DNA of 64,000 nt, taken from a virus. A model generated the notes under the pieces. The model was not told where the DNA came from. It did no database searches and saw nothing but the letters and a program-made list of their open reading frames with translations. The stretch spans positions 1-64,000 of IMG/VR virus record IMGVR_UViG_3300045988_179398; one strand, given 5' to 3'. How positions within the stretch are numbered: the stretch's first letter is position 1; every line of letters starts with the position of its first letter. The translations under genes and the position numbers were made by a program. Shown here one piece after another: positions 23,858 through 61,467 of the stretch.

Positions 23858-24274
23858 ATGATTGGAAAATTAGTAGTAGATTACGAAGAAGTAAGTTTGG
23901 GAGATTTATTGGAGTTTTTAACCGATAAAGGTATAGAATGTTGCGTTGATGGTGATAATATTTATGTTTATACTTGTCAACCCGAGGGGGTTCGGAAAAA
24001 TCCTATAATAGTGAAAGAGAAGAAAATACAAAATTATTTCTTCAAAGAATTAACCTCGCCGCCGACTCGCACGCCGACAAATTACGTGCAAACTTGGCTT
24101 TTGGAGAAATTCAATGAACAAGAATATCTTCGCTTCGAAGAAAAGCATCAAGCCGAATTAAAAAAGGCGCAAGAAAATATCCAGAGGGCGATGGAAGAGT
24201 ATAAGCAGTTATACACAAAATACGTAAACCAACAAAACAAGGAGGCGCAGTCCGATGGCGGATCAAACAACTAA
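23858..24274 (+). CDS. hypothetical protein (138 aa)
   Basis: Track ORF with an SD. Lies between terL and the putative portal gene. Confidence 0.7.
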   Translation: MIGKLVVDYEEVSLGDLLEFLTDKGIECCVDGDNIYVYTCQPEGVRKNPIIVKEKKIQNYFFKELTSPPTRTPTNYVQTWLLEKFNEQEYLRFEEKHQAELKKAQENIQRAMEEYKQLYTKYVNQQNKEAQSDGGSNN

Positions 24275-26204
24275 AAAACGCGGCAGACCGCGCAAAATTG
24301 CAGTAGACGAAGATAAGAAAATTTTAACCGATAACGCGAGTGAAACGCTTATGATGGAACAGAAAAGCGCGGCGGGAACGAACGGAAGAGTAACCATTAA
24401 TCAAGTGGCGGAGAGTTTGTTCTCGTTGTATGGGAGTGTTCTTGGTACTTATAACGGGGAATGGGGAAGTAATAACATAAATCTTTACAACCCGTTTTTG
24501 CAGAACTCGCGATTGAAGATGATAAACGCGTCCCCAGTAACGGAGACGCCCGAAGAAATCGCGCAAGCGTTGAAAGACCCTGGGTCTCACGAAGAAGAGC
24601 TTAAATCGGTCTCGGCGGGGCTTTCCGCTCGGCAATACCTTTATTACAAGATATTGCGAGAGGCGTGCGATGTCCCGATGTATAAGAGCTATTTTTTACC
24701 CGAAACGCTCGAAGATGCGAGTGAATATACGAGCAAGAGATTTCGCGAAGAGGAAGCTTTTGTAGAAGAGTGGAAAGATAGACTTGACCCGCAAGCTTTG
24801 TTTAAAAGAATTGGAATGGAAGTCAAGAGAGAGGGAAAACCGTCCTATATATTCAGACAATGTATATATGAGGACGAGGGGAAGAAGCGCGTTAAATACG
24901 TAACGTTCCAAAAACTCCCTGCCGCTTATACCAAACTCACAGGAATTGGCGAGCACGGTTATATCGCGAGTTTTAACCTTATGGTATTTATGAACCCCGC
25001 ATTTTCGCCGTTGCAATACCCCGAATTCATACGTAAGATTTGGGATGACATTATCAAAGGCGGAATCGTGTATCGCGATAATAAAGGCAATTACGCGGTA
25101 GACGCCAATAAACTTGCTAAATTCACATACGATGATGAAGGACAGGAGCGCAAAGGAACGATAGAAATCGCCAAACAAGCGGCTTCGACGGTTTATTTGT
25201 ATTGGGTACAGTTGCCGCAAGACCTTTGTTTTACCTTTATGAGCGACGGTTCTAACGCATGGTCGGTTCCCGATACGATAGGTCTTTTCTCGGACCTTCA
25301 AGAATTAAGCGATTATTCAACACTTGCAGGCTTGATAGCGAGCAGCCCGTTGACGGCTGTTCTTACAGGTCAGGCAGAATTTATAGATGGAGCGCAGCCA
25401 GGTCAAGATCAGACCAAGATCAGACCGACGACGCTCGAAGCGTTCCAAAACCTTTTCAATTCAATGGTTTCTGGAAACATCAATGCTTTCTTTGGACCGT
25501 TCAAAGATATGAAACTACAGTCGTTGCCGAACATACCGAATAGCAGCGACATTAAAACGAAGGCGGTTCAAAACTTCATTTCCTCGGCAGGAGAGGGCGG
25601 CTTGATTGTTGCAACCGATAAACCGTCGGTAGCGATGATTAAAGGCGCGCAAATGCTTGCCGAGTCTCAATACGATTATGTCACAAGACAAATCGAAACA
25701 GCCACAAACACCGTACTTGAAAAATGGTGCGGTTGTAAATATAAATGGAAGCTCAAACTTTGGGGCGGAATTTATACTTTTGACAGTCAAGTCAAGAATA
25801 TGAAAGAACTTGTGTCTTCGGGCGCAACGTTCGTCCTTCCGAGATTGGCTTCTGCTTATGATATGTCTCTCAGGCAGGTACTCGGAGTATCGAGCTATAT
25901 CGATGAGAACAAGTTGTATGATAAATTCAAAACATTAGGTTGGGCGCAGAGTGCACAAAACGCACAGGCTCGTAGCGGCTCGACACAGGATTCTAATGGC
26001 GTTGGACGTACAGCATTGGACGATACCGATATAGAAAATGATTCCACAGCACAAAGCAGAGAGACTGGCGCTAACATCACCGAATTAAAGGAAGATTATG
26101 TCGCTCAACATATTTGCCCGTTGTGCGGGAGCGAAGACGTTGAAGACGGTCATTTCTTATGCTCGGAATGTGAAGAAAAGATGGAATTAGACGGGGAGGA
26201 ATGA
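24255..26204 (+). CDS. putative portal protein with C-terminal zinc ribbon
   Basis: Size (649 aa) and position after terL. C-terminus CPLCGSEDVEDGHFLCSECEEKM. No family motif verified. Confidence 0.6.
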   Translation: MADQTTKKRGRPRKIAVDEDKKILTDNASETLMMEQKSAAGTNGRVTINQVAESLFSLYGSVLGTYNGEWGSNNINLYNPFLQNSRLKMINASPVTETPEEIAQALKDPGSHEEELKSVSAGLSARQYLYYKILREACDVPMYKSYFLPETLEDASEYTSKRFREEEAFVEEWKDRLDPQALFKRIGMEVKREGKPSYIFRQCIYEDEGKKRVKYVTFQKLPAAYTKLTGIGEHGYIASFNLMVFMNPAFSPLQYPEFIRKIWDDIIKGGIVYRDNKGNYAVDANKLAKFTYDDEGQERKGTIEIAKQAASTVYLYWVQLPQDLCFTFMSDGSNAWSVPDTIGLFSDLQELSDYSTLAGLIASSPLTAVLTGQAEFIDGAQPGQDQTKIRPTTLEAFQNLFNSMVSGNINAFFGPFKDMKLQSLPNIPNSSDIKTKAVQNFISSAGEGGLIVATDKPSVAMIKGAQMLAESQYDYVTRQIETATNTVLEKWCGCKYKWKLKLWGGIYTFDSQVKNMKELVSSGATFVLPRLASAYDMSLRQVLGVSSYIDENKLYDKFKTLGWAQSAQNAQARSGSTQDSNGVGRTALDDTDIENDSTAQSRETGANITELKEDYVAQHICPLCGSEDVEDGHFLCSECEEKMELDGEE

Positions 26205-31368: not shown

Positions 31369-33297
31369 ATGAGAAATTTTTCGAAAGAAGAGTTATATGA
31401 ATTATATATAACTCAAAACAAATCAAAAAGAGAAGTAGCTGAAATATTGCATACTAACGAGAAAACTTTGGGCGATTATTTTAAAAAATATGGAATAAAA
31501 AAATCAAAAGAAGATGTCGTTAGAGCAAGAGAATTGACATGCTTGAAAAATTTTGGTTCAACAAACCAAATGAAAAATATTGAAATCGCGCAAGAACTTC
31601 GTTCCAAACAAATAGATAGTGGTAAAATTAAAGATATACCATACGAAGAGCTTTATGATGTTTTGGTTAATAAAAAAATGCTTGTAACCAATGCGGCGAA
31701 TTTTTTTCATACTTCAATAAGCACCATAAAGAGACTTGCAAAAGAAAACGGGATTGAAATTTGTAAAGAAGAATTAAAAGCCGTTGATAAAGACGAGTTG
31801 GAAAATTATTATATTACAGAAAAACATACTCGCGAAGAATGTGCAGAGTATTTTGGAGTATCTTATTCTCGTATTAAAACGTTTTTGAAAAAGTATAAAA
31901 TCGAAAAAAGTAAAGATGAGATTTTTGAAAACATTAAACGTGGGCATAAGCGTAAAACTGGATATGAATATGCTTTGCAAAACCCCGAATCGATAAAAAA
32001 ACAAAAGGCTACTTATAAAAATAGAACCGAAGAGGAAAAGTCGGAGACGATTGAAAAACGCAAAAATACCTGTATGGATAGATTTGGTGCGAATAATCCC
32101 TTGCGTTCAGAAGATATAAAAGAAAAAGCGTTTGCTACTAATATAGAAAGATATGGATATAAAACATCAATTCAAAATCCAGAAATTCGTAAAAAAGCGG
32201 AAGATACTTTATTTGATCGGTTTGGAGTCAGGAACCCGTCTTTAGTTCCCGAGTTTAAACAAAAAAGAGAAAACACCATGCGAGAAAGATTTGGTGTTTG
32301 TAATTACGGAGAGATTGTCTTATCGGAAGATATTAGGAATTTACTTAACGATAAAGATAAATTCAAAAAATATGTTTTAGATAATAAGTTATCGACGACG
32401 TATGATATTGCGGAAAGTATAGGATGTTCAATTACAACTATTACAAACAGAATTCACGAATATAATTTAGAAGATTTGGTGAATAGGTCACAATCGCATT
32501 TTGAGACGGAAGTCAATCGTATTCTGACCGATTGGAATGTTAGACATTATAAAACAAGACAAATTTTAAGCAGTAAGCAAGAAATAGATTTTTATTGTCC
32601 GAATGAAGCGGTTGGTTTTGAATTTAATGGTAACTGGCCTCATTGTTCGATTAATAAAGATAAAAAATACCACATGGACAAATCATTGGAAGCGCAAGAA
32701 AAGAATGTAAGATTTGTCCACATATATGAATACGAATGGTGTAATCCTCAAAAACAGCCAATAATATTATCTTTAATGCGTGGAGCGCTTGGTCTTTTTG
32801 ATAAAAAAATATATGCAAGGAATTGTAAAATAAAAGAGGTTGGGACAAAAGAGTATTTCGACTTCTGTAATCAAAATCATACACAGGGTTATAGGCAAGC
32901 AAGGATTATTTATGGGCTTTATTTCAATGATGAATTAGTTCAGATAATGAGTTTTTCTCATAATGATAAATATGAATGGGAGATAATTCGTGAATGTTCT
33001 AAAATTAATACTCAAGTAATTGGCGGTAACTCAAAGCTGTTTAAATATTTTATAAAAACGCAAAATCCAAACAGTATTTTTAGTTATTGCGATTTTAATA
33101 AATTTAATGGCAAAGGCTATGAGTTATTGGGTATGAAATTTATAGGATATACTGGTCCAGATATGAAATGGTATTTGAAAGGCAATATAGTTATAAATAG
33201 AAGTCCAAGTAAAAACAAAGAACTCAAAGAAAAAGCTATTGCCCAAATTTGGGGCGCTGGTTCTAAAAAGTATTTGTGGATAAAACCGCAAGAATAA
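31369..33297 (+). CDS. multi-HTH protein with PD-(D/E)XK nuclease core and extra C-terminal domain (homing-endonuclease-like), paralog B
   Basis: Three N-terminal units like those of ORF 19874. Repeated ...RFG..NP... modules. ETEVNRIL...QEIDFYCPNEAVGFEFNGNWPH. C-terminal KIYARNCKIKEVGTKEYFDFCNQNHTQGY domain. Confidence 0.65.
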   Translation: MRNFSKEELYELYITQNKSKREVAEILHTNEKTLGDYFKKYGIKKSKEDVVRARELTCLKNFGSTNQMKNIEIAQELRSKQIDSGKIKDIPYEELYDVLVNKKMLVTNAANFFHTSISTIKRLAKENGIEICKEELKAVDKDELENYYITEKHTREECAEYFGVSYSRIKTFLKKYKIEKSKDEIFENIKRGHKRKTGYEYALQNPESIKKQKATYKNRTEEEKSETIEKRKNTCMDRFGANNPLRSEDIKEKAFATNIERYGYKTSIQNPEIRKKAEDTLFDRFGVRNPSLVPEFKQKRENTMRERFGVCNYGEIVLSEDIRNLLNDKDKFKKYVLDNKLSTTYDIAESIGCSITTITNRIHEYNLEDLVNRSQSHFETEVNRILTDWNVRHYKTRQILSSKQEIDFYCPNEAVGFEFNGNWPHCSINKDKKYHMDKSLEAQEKNVRFVHIYEYEWCNPQKQPIILSLMRGALGLFDKKIYARNCKIKEVGTKEYFDFCNQNHTQGYRQARIIYGLYFNDELVQIMSFSHNDKYEWEIIRECSKINTQVIGGNSKLFKYFIKTQNPNSIFSYCDFNKFNGKGYELLGMKFIGYTGPDMKWYLKGNIVINRSPSKNKELKEKAIAQIWGAGSKKYLWIKPQE

Positions 33298-38250: not shown

Positions 38251-38306
38251 ATTGCTTGATTTTAATATATATAAATTTATATAAATTAAAAAAGGAGAAA
38301 ATTAAT

Positions 38307-39170
38307 ATGGCTAATTATATTCTTGGCGATGTTATGAAGGCGCAGGCTTTTATATCTGTTAAAGATAAGACTGGTGACAGTTATCATCTTGAACCTTATT
38401 TCACTGCCAATACGATGACTGAAAGTACCATAAATATATCGACGACCGCTGAGGAAGTTCGTGGTGGCTGGGGCAACCAGTTGCTTGGTAAAATATTCCA
38501 TGATTCCAATTTTGCGGTAAACCTTACCGAAGCAGAGTGGTCTCTTGATTATCTTGCAGCGCAAATTGGTAAAACCATTGACAAAAAAGCCAATGGTATT
38601 AATATTAAAACTGGCAGGGGAACGATAGCTAAAACGACTGGAATACTTACTTTCAAAGAGGGTCAAGGACCCGCAACTGGTGAAACTATTGCCACCATAT
38701 TTGCCAATGCCAGCTCTTTCTGTGATGTCTCGAATACTGCTATAATGTGGGCGAAAGATTGCAAAGATAATGTATACACGATTACTGTCGGAGCTAACGA
38801 AGGAAAACCTGTATATACTGTTGTTGGTGATGCACCCACAGCAGATATCGACGTGTGTGTAACGTACCCGTTGCAGCAAGCTGATTGTGAATCTCTTATT
38901 GTTGAAGCAGCTTATGAACCTGCTGAGTTCAGTCTTTTCTTGTATGGTAAGATATTCAAAGGAAACGGCTGTCAGAAGTCTAAGACCAATAAGGTTGGAT
39001 ATTTTACGATTGAAATCCCGAGATTCCAGCTTGATGGTACAGTTGATCTTGCGATGAACCCGAGCTCTGCTGCTACTACTGGTCTTAATGGTTCTGCTCT
39101 TGCATATGGTTGTACTTGTGGCGGCGAACCCGAATATGCAAAAATTACTGTTGTTCTTGACAAAGAATAA
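38307..39170 (+). CDS. putative major tail/tube-type structural protein (287 aa)
   Basis: ATG 38307 (MANYILGDV...) preferred because AAAGGAG lies 8 nt upstream. Set between terminators as a highly expressed single gene. The family assignment is only a guess. Confidence 0.4.
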   Translation: MANYILGDVMKAQAFISVKDKTGDSYHLEPYFTANTMTESTINISTTAEEVRGGWGNQLLGKIFHDSNFAVNLTEAEWSLDYLAAQIGKTIDKKANGINIKTGRGTIAKTTGILTFKEGQGPATGETIATIFANASSFCDVSNTAIMWAKDCKDNVYTITVGANEGKPVYTVVGDAPTADIDVCVTYPLQQADCESLIVEAAYEPAEFSLFLYGKIFKGNGCQKSKTNKVGYFTIEIPRFQLDGTVDLAMNPSSAATTGLNGSALAYGCTCGGEPEYAKITVVLDKE

Positions 39171-40796: not shown

Positions 40797-43043
40797 ATGA
40801 CGGATAAATTAGCGAGAGATTTAGCATTAAGCGCTTTAGACAGAGTAAACAAAACAGTCGAAGGTGTTCCGAGAGATTATGTCGATGAGCATTTGTCGAG
40901 AAAAGTAGATAAGATAGAAAGTTCGTCCGCAAACCCACGGTTATACGGGGTTAGCGAGGCGGGGTCTCAAACTAGTTATTTCGCCACCCAAACTGCCAAC
41001 GCGCATACAATTCCGATAAGAGACGCGAGTGGCAGGTTCCAAGTAGAAAGCGGGTTGGCTCCGAAACAAGCCGTGAATAAAGAGCAGCTCGATGCTGCGA
41101 TAGAGGCGACTGCGAAGTTGTCGGAGCCCAATGCTTTTACGGAACAAAACACATTCACATCGGAAGTAAAGTTTTACGGAACCGTCGAACACACGTCCAA
41201 CGTGAACATAACAAATGGTTTTCTGAAAATATTAAATGGCAACGACAAAGATTACGTTACGACGTATAACGTCGACAATATTAAAGTTGAGGAAAACGGA
41301 AATGAATACACTTTGGCGTTTCCGACCCAATCTGGAACGTTGGCGTTGATGGGTGACATTACCACGAAGATAAATGAAAAAGTCGGGTTTAAGCATTCCG
41401 AGCTTAAAAACGAAGATGTGTTAAATAACGGCGTAATTCAAAAAGAGGATGTTTGGAAGACGGGGGATCCCGATGTGTCGTTAGTTGTTCAACACTCCGA
41501 TAGTACCAACCAATCAGGGTTGAATATCTCAAAGGCATTTGCGGAGATGGGCGTTCACGCTTTTGCGGGACAATCAACGGAAGCCGCGCAGATAATGATG
41601 ACGCCGAGCAGCATCAACATAACGAGTACAAAAAGCTCAGACACTTATACGACGGTTATCATAACCCCTGACGGAGCGACGCTGAATGGCGATCAGATTG
41701 CGACCGAAAAGACGGTTGACGCGAAAGTTGCGCGTATTCCCGAGGGTGTTGAATTAAGCGAACCCGAAAGCGCGATGCAGGGAAATTTGACGGAAGAGCA
41801 GCTCGGGAAACTCCAATTCAACAAAGCGAATTACATCCTTTTTGCGGGAAAGAAATACGACTTACGGAACGAGCGGGAGCAGAAAGACTCGCTGTCTTAC
41901 GTTTATAACGATTATTTGAACAACCGTTGCGTCCAAGATGTTATAACGATCACGGTTTCGAACCGTTCGTGGGTACGCAACTCATGCACGTTAGTAACAA
42001 ACAAAGATTATGGAGATGGGACAGCTGGCGCCGTGTCGATAAAGAAAGATTTTTCGGACGGGTTGGAAATAGCGACGACAGACGGGAATTTAAGCATATA
42101 CGGCGCAATTGACGCGGATATAGCGGGCAGGAACTCGAAACGACCGATTACAGCGACAAATCTCAATAAGGCGGTTTTAGCGGCGCTGACCGACGCGAGG
42201 AAAGTTGAACCGACCGAGCAGCAGAAGAGCGCTTTTAAGTCGGCATGGGGAATTATCGATGCGGCAAATCTGCTTGACGCTGAAATGTCTGATGAAAGCA
42301 CTAACGCGGTTCAAAACAAGGTTATCAAAGCGGAATTGGACAACCGCGTTAAGTGTTGTACGAACGTTCAAAGTGGGCAGGTAAAGGTTTACTGCGCGAC
42401 GCAGAATAATCCCAACGACGTTTGTTTGGTTTCGAGTTCGGGGACGCAAAGCTCGATTGCCCGATATACGTCGACGGGGCAGCTCGCCGTTGGAAGAGAG
42501 CCGAGTGGCGATATGGAAATTGCGAATAAGAAGTTCGTGGAGGGGATTGTCCCAAAGTACGGGGCGCAACTTCCCGATCCGACGAACGGCGCATATAAAG
42601 TTGGGTGTTCGTTCTTGAACACGACAACGGGTGGTTTGTACGTTTTGGTTACTTCTGGGAGCGCGAACAACCGCTCTTGGCAGTTACAAACTACGATTGA
42701 AAAGCCAAAATGGAGAAATACGTTACCGCACGTAAACGACACACAAATGGTGGACGAGGCGAAGGTTTTGTTCACGAAAGTCACGATAACGACGACCGAT
42801 AGCACGAACTTCCCTGGAATGAGTGGAAAGTCTGTAACGGTTCAAGGATTGAGTCTCGACGGGTTCGCGGCTGGCACGATTGTGTGTGATGAGACGACTG
42901 GCGACATAAAATATAGCCCTTGTTTTGTCGGTTCGATTACTTCGAGTAGGGCGTCTGGAATTCTGATAAAGGGTTCGAACGCGGTCGCAATCGTGAGCGC
43001 CGACAACCCGAGCGTGACGTTTACTTATGAATATTTGTGGTAA
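40797..43043 (+). CDS. tail fibre protein (748 aa)
   Basis: Fibre-like composition. The motif TIPIRDASGRFQV recurs in ORF 43447 as TVPIRDTAGRIQV. Confidence 0.6.
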   Translation: MTDKLARDLALSALDRVNKTVEGVPRDYVDEHLSRKVDKIESSSANPRLYGVSEAGSQTSYFATQTANAHTIPIRDASGRFQVESGLAPKQAVNKEQLDAAIEATAKLSEPNAFTEQNTFTSEVKFYGTVEHTSNVNITNGFLKILNGNDKDYVTTYNVDNIKVEENGNEYTLAFPTQSGTLALMGDITTKINEKVGFKHSELKNEDVLNNGVIQKEDVWKTGDPDVSLVVQHSDSTNQSGLNISKAFAEMGVHAFAGQSTEAAQIMMTPSSINITSTKSSDTYTTVIITPDGATLNGDQIATEKTVDAKVARIPEGVELSEPESAMQGNLTEEQLGKLQFNKANYILFAGKKYDLRNEREQKDSLSYVYNDYLNNRCVQDVITITVSNRSWVRNSCTLVTNKDYGDGTAGAVSIKKDFSDGLEIATTDGNLSIYGAIDADIAGRNSKRPITATNLNKAVLAALTDARKVEPTEQQKSAFKSAWGIIDAANLLDAEMSDESTNAVQNKVIKAELDNRVKCCTNVQSGQVKVYCATQNNPNDVCLVSSSGTQSSIARYTSTGQLAVGREPSGDMEIANKKFVEGIVPKYGAQLPDPTNGAYKVGCSFLNTTTGGLYVLVTSGSANNRSWQLQTTIEKPKWRNTLPHVNDTQMVDEAKVLFTKVTITTTDSTNFPGMSGKSVTVQGLSLDGFAAGTIVCDETTGDIKYSPCFVGSITSSRASGILIKGSNAVAIVSADNPSVTFTYEYLW

Positions 43044-43108
43044 TCAAAATATAAAAAAATGTTTCCCCTAGCCCCGAAAGGGGTTGGGGGAGAATAACGG
43101 AGGGAAAT

Positions 43109-43444
43109 ATGAATATAGATACGATTGTTTTATACGCGATAATTGGCATAATAGCCGTTTGCTTGCTTGTTTTTGTAATTACGTGGATTGTGAAATTCTG
43201 CAAAATGAGCAAAGAAGAAAAAATAAAAACGCTGAAAACTTATCTCAAAGGGCTTGTTTCGCTCGCGGAGCAGGAGATAGTCGGAAGCAAAATGGGCGAA
43301 GAAAAGCTCGCAATGGTCGAGGCATACTTTAACAAAAAAGCCCCGATAATATATAAAATCATACTTTCGTTGCTTGGGAAAGACAACCTGAAAGAATTCA
43401 TAGAGGAAGCTCTTAAAGAAATCAAAGAATCGTTCGGAGGTTAA
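43109..43444 (+). CDS. small membrane protein (111 aa), holin-like topology
   Basis: N-terminal TM IVLYAIIGIIAVCLLVFVITWIV and a charged C-terminus. A holin role is speculative. Confidence 0.6.
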   Translation: MNIDTIVLYAIIGIIAVCLLVFVITWIVKFCKMSKEEKIKTLKTYLKGLVSLAEQEIVGSKMGEEKLAMVEAYFNKKAPIIYKIILSLLGKDNLKEFIEEALKEIKESFGG

Positions 43445-43446
43445 TC

Positions 43447-43935
43447 ATGGCTGAATATCTTTCTACCCACACTGGGTTACGTGTCGACGAGGCGATCGCA
43501 AAAATCCCCGCTGGTAATCCAGGTGATAAATCGGTTATAGTCGTTAACACGGACGGAAAGCCTGAATACGCCCCTGCGACAACGGGGGTTGCCCCAAACA
43601 CGGTTCCAATTAGAGATACGGCGGGGAGAATTCAGGTTGCTGATGGCGTGAGCGATAGTGACGCGGCAAATTATGGACAGATCAAGAAATACGCTGACGA
43701 TAATTTTGTAAAAGCAAGAACAAATGTCACTGGCGAAAGTTTTGTATTATATGGAGCAAGTGCTGGTAATCCTAGCGATGGCGTTGAAATGGCTTTAACG
43801 GCAATTCCGTATACCGTTCCTCGAAGAGTTGCAAATGGGCAGATTTTTGTCGGAACACCTACCGAAGATTTACACGCCGTAAACAAGCAATACTTTGACA
43901 CAAATGTAACCACTTTCTCCGTGGAGGTGTGGTAA
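43447..43935 (+). CDS. tail fibre-related protein (162 aa)
   Basis: Shares the PIRD.aGR.QV...A.N motif with ORF 40797. Confidence 0.65.
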   Translation: MAEYLSTHTGLRVDEAIAKIPAGNPGDKSVIVVNTDGKPEYAPATTGVAPNTVPIRDTAGRIQVADGVSDSDAANYGQIKKYADDNFVKARTNVTGESFVLYGASAGNPSDGVEMALTAIPYTVPRRVANGQIFVGTPTEDLHAVNKQYFDTNVTTFSVEVW

Positions 43936-47595: not shown

Positions 47596-48636
47596 ATGGC
47601 AAGAACGACGGTTTATAACGAAGATTTGTCAAAAGAATGGCAGGTCGTCAATCCAAAAAACCAAAAATTATTGCGGGAGTTTGTGCGTTATTGCGTCGCG
47701 AACGATAAAAGCCCGCACACTTGTAATCAATACGAATCGCAGCTCAAAATCTTTTTCTGCTGGAATTACAGAGAAAACGCCGACAAGTTTTTTATCGACG
47801 TTAAGAAGCGCGATTTGGTCAACTTTTTCGGCTGGGGGAGAGAAATCGGATGGAGCCCGTGTCGGCTCGCCTCTCTCCGCGCCGTGTTGAGCTCGTTCAG
47901 CAATTACATCGAACGAATACTCGACGAAGATTACCCCACGTTTAGGAATCTTGTAAAGGTTCTCGAGCCGATCCATCTCGAAGCCGTCCGCGAAAAGACG
48001 ATTATCGAGAAAGACGATATAATGGCGGGGATTGAGCGATTGGTCGCACTTGGCGAGTACCAATACGCGTGTTTTCTCTCGCTTCTCTTTTCATCTGGAA
48101 TGCGCAAGTCCGAAGCGGTGCAAATGAAGGTTTCGTTTTTCACGACCGAAAGACAAGATGCTCTCGGTGGGCTCGCTTATATGACCCCAAAAATCAGGAC
48201 GAAAGGACACGGAGCGCGGGGCAAACAAGTTCAAAGGTACGTTTTTAAGGAAACCTTTGACAAATACTTTGACTTATGGATGAAGGAGCGCGAAAAGCTT
48301 GGCGTGAAAACCGACGCGCTTTTTGTTATAAAAGGCGGGTATGAAGATTACCAACCCGCGAAATCGCAAAATTTCTCCCATTGGGCGCAGAAAATCGGCG
48401 AGCTGATAGGCGTTGAATCGTTATATTGCCACAGCCTGCGACACGCGTTCACCACGTACTTAAAGCGTAACGGAACGCCAACCGACGTGGTACAAAAACT
48501 CCAATCTTGGGGAAGTGCGGATATGGTTGCGAGATATGACGATCGAAGCGAAAGCGAAGAGTTGGACGAGTTCTTCTCGACGCTTTCTGGTGAAAAAACA
48601 ACGGTTAAGGAGGAATGTGATTTATGGCAGAAGTAA
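47596..48636 (+). CDS. tyrosine recombinase / phage integrase family
   Basis: SGMRKSE (Arg), TKGHGARGK, HSLRHAF (H-x-x-R), WGSADMVARY (W/H...Y), in canonical order. 346 aa. Confidence 0.8.
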   Translation: MARTTVYNEDLSKEWQVVNPKNQKLLREFVRYCVANDKSPHTCNQYESQLKIFFCWNYRENADKFFIDVKKRDLVNFFGWGREIGWSPCRLASLRAVLSSFSNYIERILDEDYPTFRNLVKVLEPIHLEAVREKTIIEKDDIMAGIERLVALGEYQYACFLSLLFSSGMRKSEAVQMKVSFFTTERQDALGGLAYMTPKIRTKGHGARGKQVQRYVFKETFDKYFDLWMKEREKLGVKTDALFVIKGGYEDYQPAKSQNFSHWAQKIGELIGVESLYCHSLRHAFTTYLKRNGTPTDVVQKLQSWGSADMVARYDDRSESEELDEFFSTLSGEKTTVKEECDLWQK

Positions 48637-50375: not shown

Positions 50376-53300
50376 ATGATAATGAATCGTGCTGAATTAG
50401 ATAAATATTTGGCTAATAATATAGTTTATACTGGCGAATATCTCGAAGCTATGTCTGCGAAAGACTTTGCAACTTTAAACGAAGCCGCGAAAAAGAAGGT
50501 TCAAGAAATGGCTAAGCGCGGAAGAGAAGAGAGTGCGATGAAAGGGTCTTTGGCGGATATGGAAGCAAAGGCTAAAAGTCTTGGATATGATGTTGCGTAC
50601 AATGTAAACAAAAAAACTAATGAAATAGAAGTCATCTTGGTTGAAAAAGGGCAAGATGTAAAGAAAAATTATGAAAAAGTTGCGGCTGAAGCACCGACCT
50701 TCAAACTTTCTATCGGCGAAGGAACTCGTGGCGGAAAGGGAAGAATGGCTGCGCCAAAATCTTACGCACCACACGTTAGCAAAAGCGGCAAAGGGACTGT
50801 TTTACTCACACAGGTGGAAGAAACTATAAATAGTGTTACTGACGCTTTGTCAAAGCTCGACAGCAGAAAAACAAGACCCGACAAAGGATATGTTAAACAT
50901 GAAGTGAAGAAAGCACAGCGGTTGGCAGAACAATCTATCGTTACGACCGAGGGCTATTCGGTTGTTGATGAAGATAAATTCATGGAAGAAATGAAAAGAG
51001 AAACCTCGAATGCAAGAGGACAATTTGTTCGAACTAGTATGAGAGTAGGCGGCTTAATTGGCGAAGTTATTAAAAAAAGCAATTTTACCAAAAATATAAC
51101 AGCTGCTCAGAGATTAACACAGGACGAACTTAAAGCTCTTAATCAAAAGGCGGACGCGGTTGTAACGAAATACCTTGCGATTTATGCACAAGAAGGAGAA
51201 AAAGCAGCCGATAATTATTTTAAAGCCACCAAGGTCTTAAAAGACGATTTTAAATTGAGTGAAGATGATATTAAAGCTCAATTAGAAGCGGTTAAATCTG
51301 GATTTGGTGACTTTTTATATTTGCCGTCTTCCTTTGGTTTGAGCGGTGATAACGCTTTAAATACGAAAAAATTTTCCTATGTAGGCGATAGAGATTTAGC
51401 ATTCCGTCCATCCACGAGAACTGGTAGACATACGTCGCAAACAAGGAATTATCTCGAACGTAGCCAAAGAGCAAAATCAAGAGTCAAAAAAAGAGCCACG
51501 GAACGTTTTATTCCTGATGTTGATAAAGCAGATACTTCTTATTATAAAGAAATGGGGCATCAATTATATAAGCGTGGCTTGGTTTCTGGTGGGACTAAGG
51601 ATGGGATTGAATATACTCCGCAGATGTTGGTCACTAAAGCATATGAAGATGCTGCGGCTGCTTATATTGAAGAGAAGGTAAAAAAACTCAAAGAGAGCAA
51701 AAAATATAATAAAGCTTCCGACGCTCGTAAAGCAAAAATGGAAGAAGAATTGCGAGATAATATTCAAAAATCGCTTCCGACGATAGCTCAACTTGGCATT
51801 ATGGAAGATGCTGGTTTAATGAGTGAATCCGCCGCTCGTGAATTCGAATCGAGCAGAATGGTGACGACGACTATTTCTGAAAATGAATACGACAAATTGC
51901 AAAAAGAAGCCAAAGAAAAATACGAAAAACTTTCTGAAAAAGCTAAGAAGGCTGTAAATTTATCGGATTTTACCGATCGATTTATCGCTAAAAAAGCACT
52001 TAAACGCAGTAAACTTTCTGACGTAGATATTTTTCGTAATGGAGCGGAGGGTGCTTTTTCTATATCTGCAACGGAAACAGTTGGTGGAAATAGAGCTAAA
52101 TTGCTTTCGAGATATACTGGCGCTCGTGAAACAGACGTTGCCGTTCCTGATTTTATTTTCAATAGGATGGCAAAAGAGCTTAAGATTGAAGGCGCCGACA
52201 TAATTAGTGCGGCGAAAAAGTTTAAAGCGGAGGAAATTCCTGGGTATTTTCAAGGATTATTAGGTGCTTCTATATCGCAACGAACAGCAGGCAAAAACCA
52301 AGATGAAATAGAAAAAACACTTAAAGATACGGTTGCCGCTTTAAATTCAATCGGCTTTAAAGCTTCACTTGGTGAGAATGGAGAAATTTTTATAGATAAT
52401 TCTGACGAAGCAGTGTCACAGATTAAGTGGGATAAAGCATTGGGTTATCTTGAAAGTCTCAATATTCTTAAGCAAATCGATGGCGGTTTTGAATTTGTAA
52501 ATCCAGCAACAATTATAGAAGATGTTATTAATCAAGCGGATACATACGATCCGTCGAAAAAGGTTAAAACAAGCCCAAAAGAGTATTCAAGTGTAAAACG
52601 TGATATCGCCGAGGCGATGGCTGCCTCTGGAGATAAGAGCAAATTCAAATCTTTGGCGGCAGATGTCGATAGAATGTATGATCCAACCACTGGAGCGTTC
52701 GGCGCCGAAGCCAAAAAGGCATCGGTTGACATAGATGCCATATTGAATAAAAAAACGGGGTCTATAGTAAAAACTTATCAAACGACCATAAGTGGGAAAG
52801 ACAGAATAAAAGACGTCACTTCTCTTAAGAGAAAAAGTTATAAAGGGAAGATGAAAAATAAAAAGGGTGCTCACTATATAATATCCGTTGGGCGTGGTTC
52901 TGGGTACACCATTGACGCCTCTCAGTTAGAAATGGCAGCAATCAATTATCAAGAGGCTGGCGGTTTGCTTACTCGTGAAGATTATGAAAACACAGTTCTT
53001 GGTACAATTAATAAAGTCAAGTCGGAAATACTCACGAATGATACAACTGCCTCGGTAGATGTCATGATCGATCCTGGCACTGATTTTGGATTTGGTATGT
53101 CGTTCGATGGAGAAAACGCCTCGGAAGGAGCAACTGGAAGATTTTTGGTTTTGCCAAATGTTGAAATAGACACTGTGCAAAAGGATGGCGAAACATTATA
53201 TAGTTTGCCAAGTTACAACAAAGAGATTCATTCTCTCATTGGTTCGATTAAATCGGGGCAAGGGGATAGCGGTAAAATAGCACAAGAGTTAAATAAGAAA

Positions 53301-56300
53301 ATGTTTGATGCCGCACATTCAAGCAAAGGGACGTTGTGGCAAAAGGCGCATACTAAGCGACAGGGCGGATCAACGAGTGGTCACATTACTGGCATATCTC
53401 AAGATGCGATTGATAAAGCGTTAGCTGAAGGCGATATCGAAAAAGCAAAGAGATTGGCTTCCGATATCTGGGTAAGCGAAAAAGCAATGATGGAAATGCT
53501 TTCCAGCAAAACCCCTTATACAAGCGCAGATGGTGTTTATAATGTTTCCGAACATCAAAATTTTTTAACAGAAGCGGTGAAGCACTTATATAAAGACGAA
53601 GCTGGTGGTATACTCGATGGTTTAAGTGGTTCCGATGACGAAAAAAATAAAATATTATCCAGAGCAATTGCTCAAAGAATAGCAGATGATAAATTTACTG
53701 GCGCAAAAGAAGGGTTGGCGGGCATAATGAACCGTTTCCCGTCGATTGCACAATTATCAGCTGTTTTCAGTAGTTACCATGTTTCTTCCCAATTACAAGG
53801 GAAAGATATAATGGTTGGTGCCGCAATTGCAAAATTTGTAAACGGCGACTATGACGGAGATACTTTGCAACTTGTATTGGGGTTGATGAGCAGCGGAAAA
53901 TCGTTTGAAGAAGCCGATGAAATGGTCGAAAGGCAGCGAGAGAAAAACCTTAATCTTTATAAACAGATGTTCTCGAAAGGAAAAGGTGAGCCGCTCGATA
54001 AAACTGTCGCAACTCTAACAGATGCGCAAAAATTATCAGACCCGAAATATATGGGATTGTCTGCGTTGGCGGCTAAATTCAATAAACCTTATACGGGAAT
54101 GTTTTCTAATATTTCCACGCGTATAAGAGAAGGGTTGAAATTTACTGGTTTTGATGTTATCGATGAGCAAGGCAATCCAAGAGAATTATCTTCGGTTAAT
54201 GATTATATCGACGTAATAAGAGGTAAATTAGTTGCTGGCGTTGGGCAAATATTGGAACAAGATAGTATTTCTTCTAAAAAGGTCGAAAAGCGTTTAGATG
54301 AAGCAAGGAAAGCGAAAGGAAGAGATTTAACATCCGAAGAAGAAGAGGCAGAGCAACTTAAAGTTTTGCAAGAGTTTGAAGATTTGTATAATATGATGAG
54401 GGATCCGAAATCCTCATATTCCGATATTATAGGAAGAATGTCCGAAATGGGATTATTCGGTTCAGACGTCACTCAAATTTCAAGCACTTTAAGCTCAAAT
54501 ATTTTAGGATTGTTAAAAGGCGTATCTGGCGAAGATAGAAATATAATTCTTTCGAGACTCGGAATTTCTGAAGACGATTTAACGAAAGGTGCTTTATCAT
54601 CAGATGTTTATAAAAATGCTGGGAATGCTTTGGAAAACCAACTTGTTGATCCAACCACAGGAAAGCGGCTCAAAATATTCGCAGGCGAGTATGGAACTGG
54701 TTTAGCAACCTCGAGATCTTTCACCCCTTATATGAAGCAGGATACCTATGAGCTTCTTAGGTTTTTAAAATCATTGGAAGATGTTAATAGCGTATTAAAA
54801 AAGACTGGCGAAATAATTGATGAAAATGGTAACAAATTCAATCAGTATGGTGAGAGAATTAAAGAAGCGAAATCTTCGTTGGCGGCAGAAGCAGGGCAAG
54901 AATCTGCAAAAGTTGTTATTGCTGCTAAAGAAGGAAAGACGATAGAAAGGAATGTTGATATTTACCAGAAATTATCTGAAAAATTAAAGACGGCTGGTAA
55001 TAATTATAACGAGATTAACCGTTTATCGACTTCTGAGCTAAAAAGCAGATTACTTCCTTACGGCGGAGAACAAACGACTGGAATCGACGAGAAAACTTTA
55101 AATAGCGTTTATCGAAAAATCAAAGCTGGCAAAACGTTTACAAAAGCAGAACTCGCTACGCAATTTGGTGTCGAGGACGAAAAGGCGTTAAACTCATTAT
55201 TCCTTGGTAATTTAAGTACCGTTCGTGGTAATTATATCCATAACTTATCGCAGGGAGATGTTAAAGGCGCAAGGAAAGAAAAACTGAAACTTCAAAAAAT
55301 GTTTGGAGTTTTGGGGTATTCAGATGAGCAAATCGCAAGCACGTTTGATACATATAAGGCTGGCGCCAAAAACGTAAAGGCTATAACTAAACAATACGGC
55401 AGGTCTTTGGGCTCAGAAATTCCTTTTATCGGAATGACGAGTGATGGGCAATACGTTGTCAATGCTCGAGGAGACGAATTTTTCGTTGGCGAGCGTGCAA
55501 ATCCGTTTTATGATAAAGACTTTAAAGATCCAAATCAAAAGAAGATGCAAAGGGTCTTTACCGCTGTTGATTATAAAACACATACAAGTGGGAAACTCGA
55601 AGACTCTGATATTGTTCAAGGTGTAATATACAAAACATTTCTTGAAGATTTACAGACACGTTTAAAGAGTATAAAAGGCGACGTAGATATTGATTCTTTC
55701 CGTGCCGAAGTTAGTAAAGGTATGAAATATACCTCGAAAACAGAAGAAAGAGAAGCTTTGCTTGCTAAAATTACACCAGATCTTATTAAAAACCTGAAAG
55801 AATCAGATGTTGTTCAAACAGAAATTATTGTTGTAAATCCCTCAACTGGTTCTGCTCAAGCATATTCCGTTGGGGCTGATAAAGATAAATTCAAAGTAGC
55901 ACGTGATATAATTCTTAGTGGCGATACTTCTCCTTTAACATCGGAAGAGAAGACTTCGGTAAAAAGCGTAGCGAAGAAAAGGACTGACGCAAGATACTTT
56001 AAACCAGGCGAACAACAAGAAGGGATTGGAAGTATAGAGGATAAACTCAAACAAAGTGGTGGTGTTACCGCTGAGCAAAAGAACGAATCTCAAAAAGAGT
56101 ATAACACTCTCGTTTCAGAAGAGTTTAAACTCAAAAAAGAAATCGCTGCTCTCGATAAAGAACGCTGGAAGTTGACCAATATTGAAGGCAAAAAGAGCAC
56201 CGACTATACAGTTCAAAATCTCGATGCGGAAAAACAATGGCGCCAAGACGAGTTAAAACGTATGCAAGATCGCAAAGCCGAACTTGAGGGTTTGGGTGCG

Positions 56301-56974
56301 GTTGAAAGTAAAGCGACAACGGCTTCGAATGAAGAAAAAATGACCGCGTATTTGACGCGATTAGGCGTCGGCGCAGATGGGAAAATGGCTTTAACACCCG
56401 AAGAACAGGCAGATTACTGGTCTCAATACGAGCGTGCGCTTGACAAACAGGCTCGCGCGGAAGAAGAGATTTTCGGTATTCGAAATAAAGCGCAGACAAG
56501 TTACGGAACAGAGAAAAACTTACTTTATCAAATTGCAGACGAGAAAGAAAAAGCGCTGGTAACGGATAAAGCAAATGTCGCAATGCTCGAAAAGATTGTT
56601 GGCAAACTTGATCCGACCCGTCTTGCGAACATCAAAGAACAGGTTGCACTTAACCAACAGCTTTATAAACTGCAAGCACTCAAACAAACCCGTGGCGCGA
56701 CCTCTATTTGGGACGTTATGGCGAACGATATTCGTCGTGCGACCATGCGTATTGCAGACTTCGGAATTGCTGCGAAGGTTTTAAACAAGATTCCGCAGGA
56801 TATACAGAAGGTAATTCAGTATACGAAAGAGTTAGACGCGGCGATGACGAATATCAGAATCGTTAGCGGAAAATCGATGGAAGAAGCGCAGGAATTTATG
56901 CGCGGATTACAACAAATAGCACAAAAAACAGGTACAACTTTAAGCGAGTTGGCGAGTGCTGCCAACGAGTGGCT
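50376..56974 (+). CDS. giant virion protein, exon 1 (aa 1-2199 plus 2 nt): RNAP beta-prime-like double-psi-barrel motif and start of the tape-measure core
   Basis: NRFPSIAQLSAVFSSYHVSSQLQGKDIMVGAAIAKFVNGDYDGD (nt 53730-53861). The C-terminal ...MTNIRIVSGKSMEEAQEFMRGLQQIAQKTGTTLSELASAANEWL is TP901-type TMP core. The apparent tail DDCLGHYKLL* is intron read-through. Confidence 0.75.
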
Positions 56975-57281
56975 TGACGATTGTCTGGGTCACTATAAAC
57001 TCCTTTAATTGCTGGAACCCCCTTAGAACCATATAGCTACAACATAACGATGAAATATGCGCAAGTGTGATAGTTGAAAATATATGGATTGGGAAATCAG
57101 CAGCCAAGCCTCGAATAGAGGAAGGTTCAACGAATATGTTCCACGAGTGTGGATAATGGGGAGCTCTACATAGAGAAATCTATGCGAAAGATATATTCTG
57201 AACTTCTGGGGAAACTCAGAGAAAATTCTATTATAGAATCTTTTAAATGATAAACTAAATTTAAAAGTAACACAATTACAG
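56975..57281 (+). ncRNA. group I self-splicing intron (IA-like, ORF-less, 307 nt)
   Basis: P1: exon AGUGGCU (56968-56974) pairs with GGUCACU (56988-56994), with a terminal U.G. P AAUUGCUGGAA (57007-17), Q AAUCAGCAGCC (57095-105), R GUUCAACGAAUAUG (57125-38), S AAGAUAUAUUC (57188-98). Ends in G57281. Splicing restores the frame. Confidence 0.85.
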
Positions 57282-60200
57282 ACAAGGTTATGAAAGCACT
57301 GAGGAGATAGAAGAACTTCTCGACGCTTCGACAAAATTAAGTAAGCTTGGTATGATACCCGCAAGCGAAAGCGTTAAACTCTTAACGTCGAGCTTAAAAG
57401 GTATGAAGTTATCCGCGAACGAAGCGATTTCCGTCGTTGATAAGTTGACAAAACTTGACATGAAGAGTGCTACGAGTGCGCAGGAACTCGCCCAAGCTTT
57501 AAGCAAGGTTGCAAACTCGGCGCGTCTCGCGAAAGTGTCTCAAGACGAAATTTTGGGTATTCTCAGTGTCGGTATTGAAACGACGCAACAGAGTGGTGAT
57601 GTTATCGGCACGGCTGTCAGAAGTCTTTTGGCAAGGTTCTCAAACGTTAAAGCTTCGAAATTTGGCGGAAGTGGAGAAGAAACCGAGGGAACGTTGAACG
57701 ATACGGAAGCCGTTCTTTCTAAGATTGGAATTCGTATAAGAAGTGCGTCGGGCGAAATGCGCTCGTTTATAGACGTTCTCGATGATGTCGCAGAAAAGTG
57801 GGATACTCTCGATGATGTTTCCCGTAATGCCATCAGTACCGCCATGGCAGGCACTAGACAAAAGGAGATCTTCGCATCAATCATTGAAAATTACGATCGC
57901 GTAAGAGAATTGATAAACGAATCTGCCAATGCCGCAGGAACCGCTGACGAGAAATACACCGCTTACATGGACTCTATGGAGGCGGCGACGAAGCGGCTCC
58001 AAAACGCGTGGGAAGGATTTACTCAATCGCTCGAAACGAGCACGGTAATGAAATCTATTACAAATACGGCTGCGTTTTTTGTCGAAAATGCTGATAAACT
58101 CAAGTATCTTGTGACTTATATAGCAGCCGCTGGTTCAGTAAAATTTTTTAACTTCTTGACCAACAAAGGCGAAACGGGCGGCTGGAAAGGTTTGGTTGCC
58201 AATATCCCGTTTGTAGGCAGAGGAACGAAGACTAACAATATCCTCGAAAGTATTGACAAAAAAGTCGGCAACATCGAGAGAGGTGTCGGAGCGGATTCGT
58301 TAGCAAATCAAACAAAGAATGGTGGTTTCTTTAAAAGGCTTGGCGGTTTCTTAAAAACTGGCTTTGGATTTGGGGATATTTATGATCCAGAAACTGGGAA
58401 GAGTATTTCTTATAGAGAAGCAAAGGCATATGGCAAACTTTTAAAATCGACTACTGGGGGGACCGCAGTAACCGATCCACAAATGAACCAATATGTAAAA
58501 CTCCTTAAACAGCGTAAAATCGGTAATGTCGCGATGGGTGCAACTTCTGCCGTTTTAACTAATCTGTTTACTACGAAACAAGTCGGCGGAAGCGGATTTG
58601 GGAAGCTGGTTAATACAACCAATCAAACCGTAGAAGAAACTACTGGCGATAAAATCGGGAGGACGGTTCTTTCTGGTGCCCTTGCTGGGCTCGGAGGATA
58701 CGTTTTAGGTCCTTTTGGAGCTATAATTGGGCAAACTCTAGGCGAAAATTTTGCAGGAATGTTCTCGACTTGGTTCCATCGTGACGAGCTTGCGATGAAG
58801 CAGCGCGTCGCTGAAGCCAAAGAGAATCTTGCAGCGCTGAAAAACTTGGATACGACCTTAGACAGTATAAATCTTGCAGAAGAAGGCAGCGCTGATGAGT
58901 TCGCGAATAAATTGAGAGATTATTTCACAGATAACCCCGATTTGTTCAAGCCCTTAATAGGATCATTAAACGATAGTAAAGCGATACAGGGAATAGATAG
59001 AATTTCTCAATTAGTGAACTTAGTTAAGAACAATAACACGGCCGACAACGAGAAGATTTTACAGGCGTTGAAAGTCGCTATTCCCAAAGGGAAAATCGGG
59101 GAGATATACGACTCTCAAGAAGAAGAACGCGCGAAAATTATAAAAGAAGAACAATCGGTTATTTATAGTGTTTCACAGTTACGTGATATTTTAGACCGTG
59201 TTAGTCAGGTCGATAAGAGTGTAGATTGGAGCCCCATAATAGGTGGAGATTGGGGCACCATAGAGGGAAGACTGGCCATTTTCGAAAAGCTCCGAGATAT
59301 AAATAGTGAAAATCTTAAGGATATTCTGCCTGATGAGTACATTGATTATTATATAAACAAAGTGAAACCCCTTGCTATAAAAATGCAAGCGCTGGATGAC
59401 GAGATTCTTACCCCGATTGCGCAATTCGGTTTTAATAAGTCTAATATTGCCAATCTTTCGGGGTATGAATTGACCGATCTCGGTGTTGAGGGGGCTGTCA
59501 AAAAGGTTGCAGATACACTGCAAGACGCGGGTTATAATGTCATGACTAACGGTCTGATACATAGGGATATATATGACCAGATTATGAATCAAATTAAAAA
59601 ATCTGATATATATAAGAGTTTGCAGTATGGTACAAAGACCATAGGGGAACTCGACCTAAACAAGGAACAAGATTTAAAGAGATTTGAACAGTTCGCTCAC
59701 GCGTTTGGTATTTCTATAGACAAAGCCGAAAAATTAAAAGAAGAATTCGGAGATTTATCTACTGCGATGGCTTATATGACGCCGCAAGAAGTGCTTGATT
59801 ATTATAATAATTTATCGTCCATATTCAACGATTTGGCTACTAACGCCGCAGTTTCGGCTGAAAACATCGAAAAAATATTAACCGACGAAAATTATAAGAG
59901 TCTTATTCCTTATTTAACCAAAGGGAACGAAGCACTTCAAGCCAACCTTTATAAAAGGTTGTTGGGCGGAGAGAAGGACTTTGTTTATGAGGCATCTTTA
60001 TTTTCTTCGTTAATGTCCAACAAGGATATTTTTGAGAGTTTCACAGATAAGCTCGAAGACGAAGGTTTGAAGAAGAGAATTAGCGAATTAGGCTACACGT
60101 CTTTCCAATCCATTATTTCTGCCGTTCAGGACGGGACCATTAAAGAGAGTGATGAAATTGTTCAAAAGGCAAAAGAAGAAATCGAAGCTTGGAACGTAGA

Positions 60201-61467
60201 ATACAAGAAAGACTTGGAGGGGACCAATAAACTTATTTCTTATCAAACGTCCCTTTTAGACAAACAAATCACTAACCTTAACGACCAAAAATCGGCGTTA
60301 AAAGATGTTAACAATGAGCGCGAAAAAGAGCTTAATCTCATAAAGGCGAGACAAGCACTTGAAGACGCACGGAAAGAAAAGAAGAGGGTTTATCGTGCGG
60401 GTGTCGGGTTTGTTATGGAAAGTAACGAAGAAGCAATAAATTCCGCTCAGAAAGCGCTCGACGATCTTGACGTTGAAAAGAGGCAGGAGGAAATCCAACT
60501 TCGAATAGACGCCCTACAGCAAGAAAAAGATATTCTAGAAAATTTGCCCAAAGAAGAAGAAATGGCGCAGCTTTCGAAGATATATGCTCAATGGGCTGGC
60601 GATGGCGAAGGCAGCATGAACTCTGTTTCCAAGGCAACCGCCGATTTGGTTGCAAAATACAAAGATTCAATCGGGGCGCTGGATGCTTATAAAAAGTTCG
60701 TCGATGAACTTAGGATTGAAAAGCCCAAAGATAATACCCCGCCGTCTTCCAACAACAACACTTTAGGTGCTCGACGTATCAATGTGGGTAGTATTGAGGG
60801 TGTAGATGACGATAAGTATAAGAAAAATTATAGGGGTTACGACGGGATGTCGATCACATTCGACGGAACAACGTATGAAGTGTTAACGTCGAATAAGAAA
60901 GATGATATTAGAGAGCAAGAATTTATCAAAGCCAAGTATAAAGAATTATATAAAAATCCCAAAACAGGAGAAGTTGACGATCCTAAAACAGGAGATGTCG
61001 TCTCCTATGGTGGGAACTATTATGTTTACCACGAAAGTAATACAACTTGGGAAAAAATTCTTAATGAAAGAGATGGCGAAGAGTTAATTAAAGCTTTCCG
61101 TGACAAGGGATATTCTTCTGGAACAACTTCCTTCCAAGGTGGCAGAGCTCTTGTCAATGAGCTCGGAACCGAGGCGGTCATTACTCCAGGCGGCACGCTT
61201 ACCGCGCTTCCTTCGAAGACGGGTATCGTCCCTGCGGACATAACCCGAAATGTTTGGGCACTCGGCGAAGTTGCTCCGACGCTGGTTGCGCAGCTTAGTT
61301 CGCTTAATCAAAAAGCGCTCACTGGCAACGCTGGAAACACGACTTATGAAGAAGGTCAATACATCGATAATCTTACCATGAACGTTTATCCGACAAAGGA
61401 TTACGATATGGATAAGTTGCTTTCCGAGGCGCGTGCCAAGGCGAAGCTCACAAGGCACAACAATTAA
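57282..61467 (+). CDS. giant virion protein, exon 2 (1,394 aa): rest of the tape-measure core and C-terminal region
   Basis: The frame is open from 57271. The junction CT|A gives ...ANEWL-QGYESTEEIEELLDASTKLSKLGMIPASESVKLLTSSLKGMK..., a continuous TMP core. The C-terminus has VNELGTEAVITPGGTLTALP, typical of TMP ends. Confidence 0.8.

Follow-up and report, generated by a model that had tools for sequence, protein, structure and literature searches.

The window analysed here is a stretch of 64,000 nucleotides (nt) of viral DNA (positions 1 to 64,000 of IMG/VR record IMGVR_UViG_3300045988_179398). Two open reading frames (ORFs) in it, 50376-57008 and 57352-61467, are exons of a single gene with a group I intron between them. 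This gene codes for a giant tape-measure protein of ~3,595 amino acids (aa). We propose that its N-terminal ~1,500 aa are a single-chain RNA polymerase, which would be delivered with the tape measure and would transcribe the first genes of the phage. We assign this reading a probability of roughly 0.7; activity, packaging and injection are predictions. The parts of the gene are as follows.

50376..57008, + strand: ORF, 2210 aa
57352..61467, + strand: ORF, 1371 aa
50376..56975, + strand: exon 1, aa 1-2200, with the polymerase-like module, the linker and the first portion of the tape-measure core (from the ORF list and its translation)
56976..57279, + strand: group I intron, 304 nt (RF00028)
57280..61467, + strand: exon 2, aa 2201-3595 plus stop, with the tape-measure core, a hydrophobic segment, a long helical part and the C-terminal domain

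The polymerase-like module

The N-terminal module has a beta-like and a beta-prime-like part, with several conserved segments.

50376..53300, + strand: beta-like (second-largest-subunit-like) part, aa 1-975 (AlphaFold model, Foldseek)
51420..51455, + strand: conserved TGRHTSQTRNYL segment; R351, H352 and Q355 are nearly invariant in alignments
53313..54935, + strand: beta-prime-like part, ~aa 980-1520 (Foldseek, profile search against the PDB, PF00623, phrog_2987)
53730..53861, + strand: catalytic-barrel motif NRFPS...NGDYDGD, aa 1119-1162, with the presumed metal-binding aspartate triad
54075..54137, + strand: conserved K.N....G.FSN.ST..R..L segment, aa 1234-1254, near-invariant in the family and helical
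54255..54293, + strand: conserved EQD.IS.KKV..R segment, aa 1294-1306, near-invariant in the family and helical

The region aa 980-1520 is homologous to RNA polymerase beta-prime. A profile made from the family alignment trimmed to aa 975-1320 (A5) was compared with the PDB and matched the phiKZ non-virion polymerase gp55 (7ogp_A) with an E-value of 8.9e-8 (35 bits). Further matches were vaccinia rpo147 (1.6e-5), RPB1 of African swine fever virus (ASFV) (8e-4), AR9 beta-prime (7s00/7s01; 1.5e-3) and archaeal Rpo1N (3.5e-3), and all 60 of the 60 matches listed are largest subunits of RNA polymerases. Trimming was needed for significance, because the larger profile A1 gave an E-value of only ~1 at the motif in the same database. 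A Pfam search with the N-terminal 2,100 aa as a single sequence had no match. PF00623 (RNA_pol_Rpb1_2) is matched by 10 of 15 family members (best E-value 3.3e-7), and three members match baculovirus LEF-9 in Pfam. In a single-sequence PHROG scan, aa 1091-1169 were assigned to phrog_2987, "RNA polymerase beta subunit" (E-value 2.1e-5).

The fold agrees with this assignment. An AlphaFold model of aa 290-1489 has a predicted local distance difference test score (pLDDT) of 71.4 and a predicted template modelling score (pTM) of 0.65. Its best 50 Foldseek matches in the PDB are all beta-prime or largest subunits, with E-values from 2.4e-4, a probability of ~1.0 and ~300 aligned columns. In the BFVD database, the best match to this model is a metagenomic "minor tail protein" (A0A8S5SD80_1, E-value 2.5e-23, template modelling score 0.51 over 1,006 columns). 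An unnamed protein (A0A7R7G2L5_2, 2.4e-16) and a protein from Acinetobacter phage ME3 (A0A172Q021_2, 8.9e-7) come next, followed by many viral RNA polymerases.

The sequence identity of these three BFVD proteins to the polymerase module is only 11-18%. Because the fold is matched at such low identity, further tail or virion proteins may hide polymerases.

The catalytic motif is represented by the peptide NRFPSIAQLSAVFSSYHVSSQLQGKDIMVGAAIAKFVNGDYDGD at aa 1119-1162 (nt 53730-53861). It aligns to NRxP(T/S)...NADFDGD of the phiKZ, vaccinia, ASFV and AR9 polymerases. N1119, R1120, P1122 and the string NGDYDGDT (1156-1163) are invariant among 18 close homologues. When relatives of 22-31% identity are added, giving 29 sequences, R1120, P1122, D1158, D1160, G1161 and D1162 are still invariant. 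Large ORFs in all six frames of the window contain only two D[FY]DGD sites, and both are in polymerase-like proteins. Together with this conservation and the profile match to a solved phage polymerase, this speaks against a chance motif. Downstream of the triad, we infer that aa 1234-1254 are a candidate for the equivalent of the bridge helix. A GxFSNxxT segment follows DFDGD collinearly in the YonO-like family, too.

The AlphaFold model of aa 1-975 has a pLDDT of 80.2 and a pTM of 0.48. Its best 50 Foldseek matches in the PDB are all second-largest subunits, with weak E-values (6e-3 to 9e-2); they include bacterial beta, Rpb2, archaeal B, AR9 beta (7s01_C) and poxvirus Rpo132. Because the beta-like part precedes the beta-prime-like part and the two match lists split cleanly, we argue for a fused beta/beta-prime enzyme as the likely nature of the module. 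From the strand pattern and a set of invariant residues (G839, G841, Y844, D899, R922 and Y942), the second barrel is predicted to lie near aa 833-947, with D899, R922 and Y942 as its presumed key residues. What points to this beta-type barrel is fold similarity.

The original prediction had placed the motif peptide correctly. Of the refuting conditions it had named, the two open to computation turned out in its favour: profile and structure searches found a barrel of the beta-prime type around aa 1100-1200, and the DYDGD triad is invariant in homologues. Its two barrels stand to different degrees, the beta-prime-type barrel by sequence and fold and the second at fold level only. The module is closest to the beta-prime of multisubunit-type enzymes (phiKZ, poxvirus, cellular) and not to QDE-1, RNA-dependent RNA polymerases (RdRPs) or YonO, which it had named for comparison. 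The segment RTGRHTSQTRNY, starting at aa 348, had been compared to the SxSQxR motif of RdRPs. Its conservation is real, but it could not be assigned to that motif; it is in a low-confidence loop in both models.

A single gene split by a group I intron

The remainder of the protein consists of a linker and the tape measure proper.

54936..56693, + strand: linker, ~aa 1521-2106, less conserved and largely helical, joining the polymerase module to the tape-measure core
56913..57852, + strand: PhageMin_Tail core (PF10145), ~aa 2180-2391, straddling the intron
58663..58737, + strand: glycine-rich hydrophobic segment TVLSGALAGLGGYVLGPFGAIIGQT, aa 2662-2686, the single such segment in a hydropathy scan

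The density of invariant columns falls after ~aa 1520, and the linker has no family matches in a Pfam search. From what is generally known of tape measures, TVLSGALAGLGGYVLGPFGAIIGQT is a candidate for a membrane-inserting part. PF10145 is matched by the spliced sequence over positions 6-201 of 201 (E-value 3.8e-31), and by exon 2 alone over positions 31-201 only (1e-25). The spliced sequence also matches TMP_3 (8.5e-10).

Homologues of exon 1 were found at an E-value of 0. Relatives lacking the intron have single ORFs of 3,317-3,654 aa, in which ANEW[A/L/N]RQGY spans the insertion site. The spliced protein aligns end to end (blastp) with the single-ORF homologues P0002, P0021 and P0026, at 76%, 54% and 42% identity, respectively. 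More distant members (P0029, P0030, P0032, P0036 and P0037), whose N-terminal part is 24-47% identical, likewise combine the N-terminal module with the tape-measure C-terminus. The earlier claim that one polypeptide continues across the intron into a tape-measure core is confirmed by the RF00028 match, by the domain straddling the junction and by these single-ORF homologues. The further claim that a two-barrel-type polymerase module is covalently joined to a tape measure is supported by profile and fold searches, the conserved triad and the confirmed fusion.

The intron matches the Rfam model RF00028 over the model's full length (positions 1-253) with 47.2 bits, 2.8 bits below the curated threshold of 50; the E-value is 5.5e-11 when the region is searched and 7.1e-9 when the whole window is. 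The conserved catalytic core (P3-P8) is recognised, and the region is the sole match to any RNA family, introns included, in the window. Exon 1 ends where the P1 pairing (GUGGCUU/GGGUCAC) puts its boundary; in this pairing, the exon end (GUGGCUU) is bound by the internal guide 5'-UUGUCUGGGUCAC-3'. P1 shows covariation over three alleles, with C, G or A as the exon base and G, C or U in the guide, respectively. The P10 pairing AGACAA/UUGUCU (6 base pairs, bp) is contiguous with P1.

Two junctions are in frame, and the product has 3594 or 3595 aa, depending on the one chosen. The junction 56975|57280, based on the contiguous P1/P10 and on protein homology, yields ANEWLRQGY and 3,595 aa, with an intron that ends in C. 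In the alternative (intron 56975-57281, 307 nt), the intron ends with the canonical terminal G57281 and the product has ANEWLQGY and 3,594 aa; the arginine that is invariant among intron-less relatives is dropped. Comparison with intron-less homologues favoured 56975|57280 over this second junction (56974/57282).

A part of the intron (56998-57109, 112 nt) is 79% identical to unannotated stretches in the Serratia and Pectobacterium jumbo phages 2050HW, Haymo and ParM-25. The megablast comparison of the giant gene with isolated phages returned nothing beyond these 112 nt. Because of this match, we conclude that the same intron lineage occurs in very different phages. The homologous intron of a 159-kb human-gut contig (L002, 16685-17921) holds an inserted ORF of 288 aa (Pfam DUF7487), which the intron in the window does not have. 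This ORF may code for a homing endonuclease.

Proposed delivery with the tape measure and alternative explanations

The tail tube houses the tape measure, which is pushed out into the host envelope upon infection. Because of this, a polymerase fused to it would be delivered along with it. The enzyme would enter the host with the expelled tape measure, or it would sit at the channel. The injected polymerase would then transcribe the leading end of the genome, independently of the host polymerase. A YonO-like enzyme, which is also encoded in the window and is likely the non-virion partner, would take over the later genes; this division of labour is what we infer from the presence of both.

To our knowledge, a fusion of tape measure and polymerase has so far been documented for Thermus phage P23-45 only. 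Its gp96 has been proven to be a virion RNA polymerase fused to the tape measure (Chaban et al. 2024, PMC10770324), so that the original prediction was mistaken in stating that no two-barrel polymerase is known to be fused to a tape measure. The fused enzyme occurs in P23-45 virions and transcribes the pre-early genes, including the gene of a second, non-virion polymerase, gp64; the motif is conserved in close relatives of P23-45, and the authors termed the fusion a previously unsuspected association (PMC10770324). The architecture and the proposed mechanism are, hence, already known from gp96. gp96 and the protein described here are each a giant polypeptide in which an N-terminal polymerase with a DxDGD loop, of the two-barrel type (in the present case by prediction), precedes a C-terminal tape measure. 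Both phages encode a separate, single-subunit second polymerase, and for both, the proposal is that the fused polymerase travels with the tape measure and transcribes the first-entering genes. The two differ in the position of the triad (aa 779 in gp96, aa 1158 here) and in the module, which here has ~1,500 aa and resembles fused beta and beta-prime. The partner enzyme is YonO-like here and not gp64-like. P23-45 is from a thermophile, whereas the source here is human-gut metagenomes, and the gene described here contains a group I intron.

When the family was aligned to gp96 with hhalign, only the DxDGD loop was matched, with a probability of 0.4%. The hidden Markov model (HMM) of the family gave 2.5 bits for gp96, a score below zero for gp64 and 0-5 bits for YonO-like proteins, versus 35 bits for phiKZ gp55. 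Membership in the gp96 family was rejected on the basis of the hhalign probability and the HMM score. Nor does gp96 appear in the list of 50 PDB fold matches to the model of aa 290-1489. Against the YonO-like family, hhalign found nothing with the full alignment and two short collinear motifs with trimmed input. Given these motifs at most and the 0-5 bits, membership of the tape-measure module in the YonO lineage was rejected as well. In the scheme of Chaban et al., multisubunit-type enzymes are a clade apart from gp96, gp64, QDE-1, gp66 and YonO, and the present family is not in their survey tables (PMC10770324). Judged by sequence, this family is probably a second, separate lineage of tail-delivered polymerase.

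Other systems resemble parts of the arrangement. YonO of the Bacillus prophage SPbeta shares with the tape-measure module the collinear R-x-P...DxDGD...GxFSNxxT; the module, however, has a much greater size and is part of a structural protein. Among the matches listed, phiKZ gp55 and AR9 beta-prime are closest to the beta-prime-like part by sequence and fold. The phiKZ and AR9 enzymes, however, are assemblies of four or five polypeptides, none of them joined to a tail protein, whereas here the beta-like and beta-prime-like parts are in one chain that continues into the tape measure. gp66 of phi14:2, a crAss-like phage, and the virion RNA polymerase (vRNAP) of N4 are, as proposed here, large polymerases that the virion delivers and that initiate early transcription with no need for the host enzyme; gp66, moreover, has two barrels and forms part of a larger protein. 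Both belong to podovirus-like particles and are packaged in the capsid; they are not tape measures. The N4 enzyme is T7-like rather than two-barrel, and gp66 is not named among the 60 PDB profile matches listed for the module.

Several points weigh against a tail-delivered polymerase. Profile searches with aa 300-959 against the PDB, Pfam and PHROGs match nothing, and the Foldseek E-values of the beta-like part are weak. The pTM is moderate for both models (0.65 for aa 290-1489 and 0.48 for aa 1-975). The conserved RH..Q segment is in a loop with a pLDDT <50 in both of them. The 3' splice site is ambiguous, as the junction that preserves frame and length lacks the canonical terminal G. A tblastn search with the polymerase module found it absent from isolated phages in GenBank. 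Proteolysis of tape-measure proteins can occur, and the polymerase part might be lost in this way ahead of assembly or in its course.

The module could be derived from a polymerase but no longer make RNA, having adopted a structural or DNA-handling role (plug, DNA-end binder or length spacer). This would fit a highly divergent module whose best sequence match reaches only 35 bits and whose second barrel has no detectable sequence signature. We consider it unlikely, because the catalytic centre appears to be under purifying selection: the aspartate triad, its internal glycine and the R-x-P upstream do not vary down to ~22% identity, and two further segments downstream are nearly invariant. Inactive derivatives usually lose the triad.

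With similarly low probability, the polymerase is active but not delivered by the virion. It might be cleaved from the precursor or serve as a second non-virion enzyme in the producing cell. Processing is known for tape measures in general, a less conserved linker of ~590 residues parts the two halves, and the gene is interrupted near aa 1644 in some relatives. The fusion in one frame is, however, kept throughout the family, including members with only 24-31% identity in the polymerase part, which is hard to explain by mere co-expression. The phage already has a separate polymerase of the non-virion type, and the fused enzyme of P23-45 is found in virions (PMC10770324).

Two independent, unspliced genes, one for a polymerase-like protein of 2210 aa and one for a tape measure of 1371 aa, are very improbable: the Rfam score just below threshold (47.2 versus 50 bits), the lack of a terminal G at the arginine-preserving junction and the separate calling of the two ORFs in public gene calls are outweighed by the agreement of the intron match (7e-9 for the whole window), the P1 covariation in three alleles with its contiguous 6-bp P10, a PhageMin_Tail domain that starts in exon 1 and is complete only upon joining, and the single ORFs of intron-less relatives.

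A broader proposal builds on the tape-measure-borne polymerase. According to this proposal, the fusion of polymerase and tape measure arose at least twice, and the lineage described here, found in large human-gut phages, descends from a polymerase of the beta/beta-prime type and not from the gp96/gp64/QDE-1-like clade. The injected and the YonO-like enzymes would jointly run the whole transcription programme without the host polymerase. This proposal is tentative, and we rate it at somewhat below even odds.

If the tail-delivered polymerase is real, delivery by tape measure would be a recurrent solution of long-tailed phages rather than an oddity of thermophiles. The mechanism would be relevant to the biology of gut phages, as the family comes from human-gut metagenomes and is intact in members with only 24-31% identity. 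Structural and evolutionary studies of two-barrel enzymes would gain a compact beta/beta-prime polymerase in a single chain. It would also offer a concrete test of how a folded enzyme of ~1,500 residues is stored in a tail tube and passed through it. As the best BFVD match illustrates, enzymes may be concealed among the giant "minor tail proteins" of viral metagenomes.

Genome context, the second polymerase and family distribution

The giant gene belongs to a + strand block that starts at 13200, with the terminase and portal genes upstream in the same block. The following genes of the block are referred to here.

14359-17169, + strand: YonO-like single-subunit RNA polymerase, 936 aa (motif scan, tblastn, PHROG, and Pfam on homologues)
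19874-21046, + strand: HNH homing endonuclease, in the replication/packaging and head block
21940-23844, + strand: terminase large subunit
24255-26204, + strand: portal
31369-33297, + strand: second HNH homing endonuclease, in the replication/packaging and head block
38256-39170, + strand: virion structural-protein match
40797-43935, + strand: tail-protein matches
47596-48636, + strand: tyrosine-recombinase-like gene (phage integrase family), in the tail block, upstream of the tape measure by two ORFs

In the + strand block, which leads into the structural genes, the YonO-like gene comes third among the ORFs. The protein carries the motif CRSPQID...DADFDGD at aa 509-560, with DADFDGD at aa 554-560 and D556 encoded at nt 16024. 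With tblastn it matches SPbeta-group phages at the position of YonO (E-value 1e-28), as well as phage genes annotated as RdRP. It belongs to phrog_8308 (E-value 1.9e-100) and has many homologues, which carry Pfam PF05183. Because the window encodes this enzyme besides the tape-measure module, the phage has two candidate polymerases. In close relatives, the YonO-like products often have only 557-577 aa, ~60% of the query, which suggests that the gene is interrupted there.

The giant protein has few homologues. At 90% identity they form 27 clusters, and only 19 representatives were found among 1.84 billion proteins. Most have 2,000-4,000 aa, and the relatives come from human-gut metagenomes. A scan of GTDB genomes returned only three contigs from metagenome-assembled genomes (MAGs), with conflicting bin names, and almost no prophage copies. 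Several members of the P0001 cluster end at 1,644-1,659 aa (e.g., DAQ93983.1, "MAG TPA: minor tail protein"), which points to another site of interruption, in the polymerase-to-linker region of some genomes.

The gene order around the giant gene is the same in the 159-kb contig L002. Family-library scans found no chaperone family for the ORF just upstream of the giant gene. The placement of the tyrosine-recombinase gene is conserved in relatives. Both HNH genes share a repeated coding module of 60 nt, which belongs to a repeat family (D1) with five copies. An exact repeat of 37 nt, ACCCGAGGGGGTTCGGAAAAATCCTATAATAGTGAAA, is present at 18502-18538 and 23980-24016. It has a GC-rich, hairpin-like start and a TATAAT, and may act as a promoter or a terminator, or mark where a mobile element ends. 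The left part of the window contains two pairs of intergenic repeats of 65-80 nt with 75-78% identity (1695-1761/2061-2127 and 3065-3145/3694-3774), which may have a regulatory role there.

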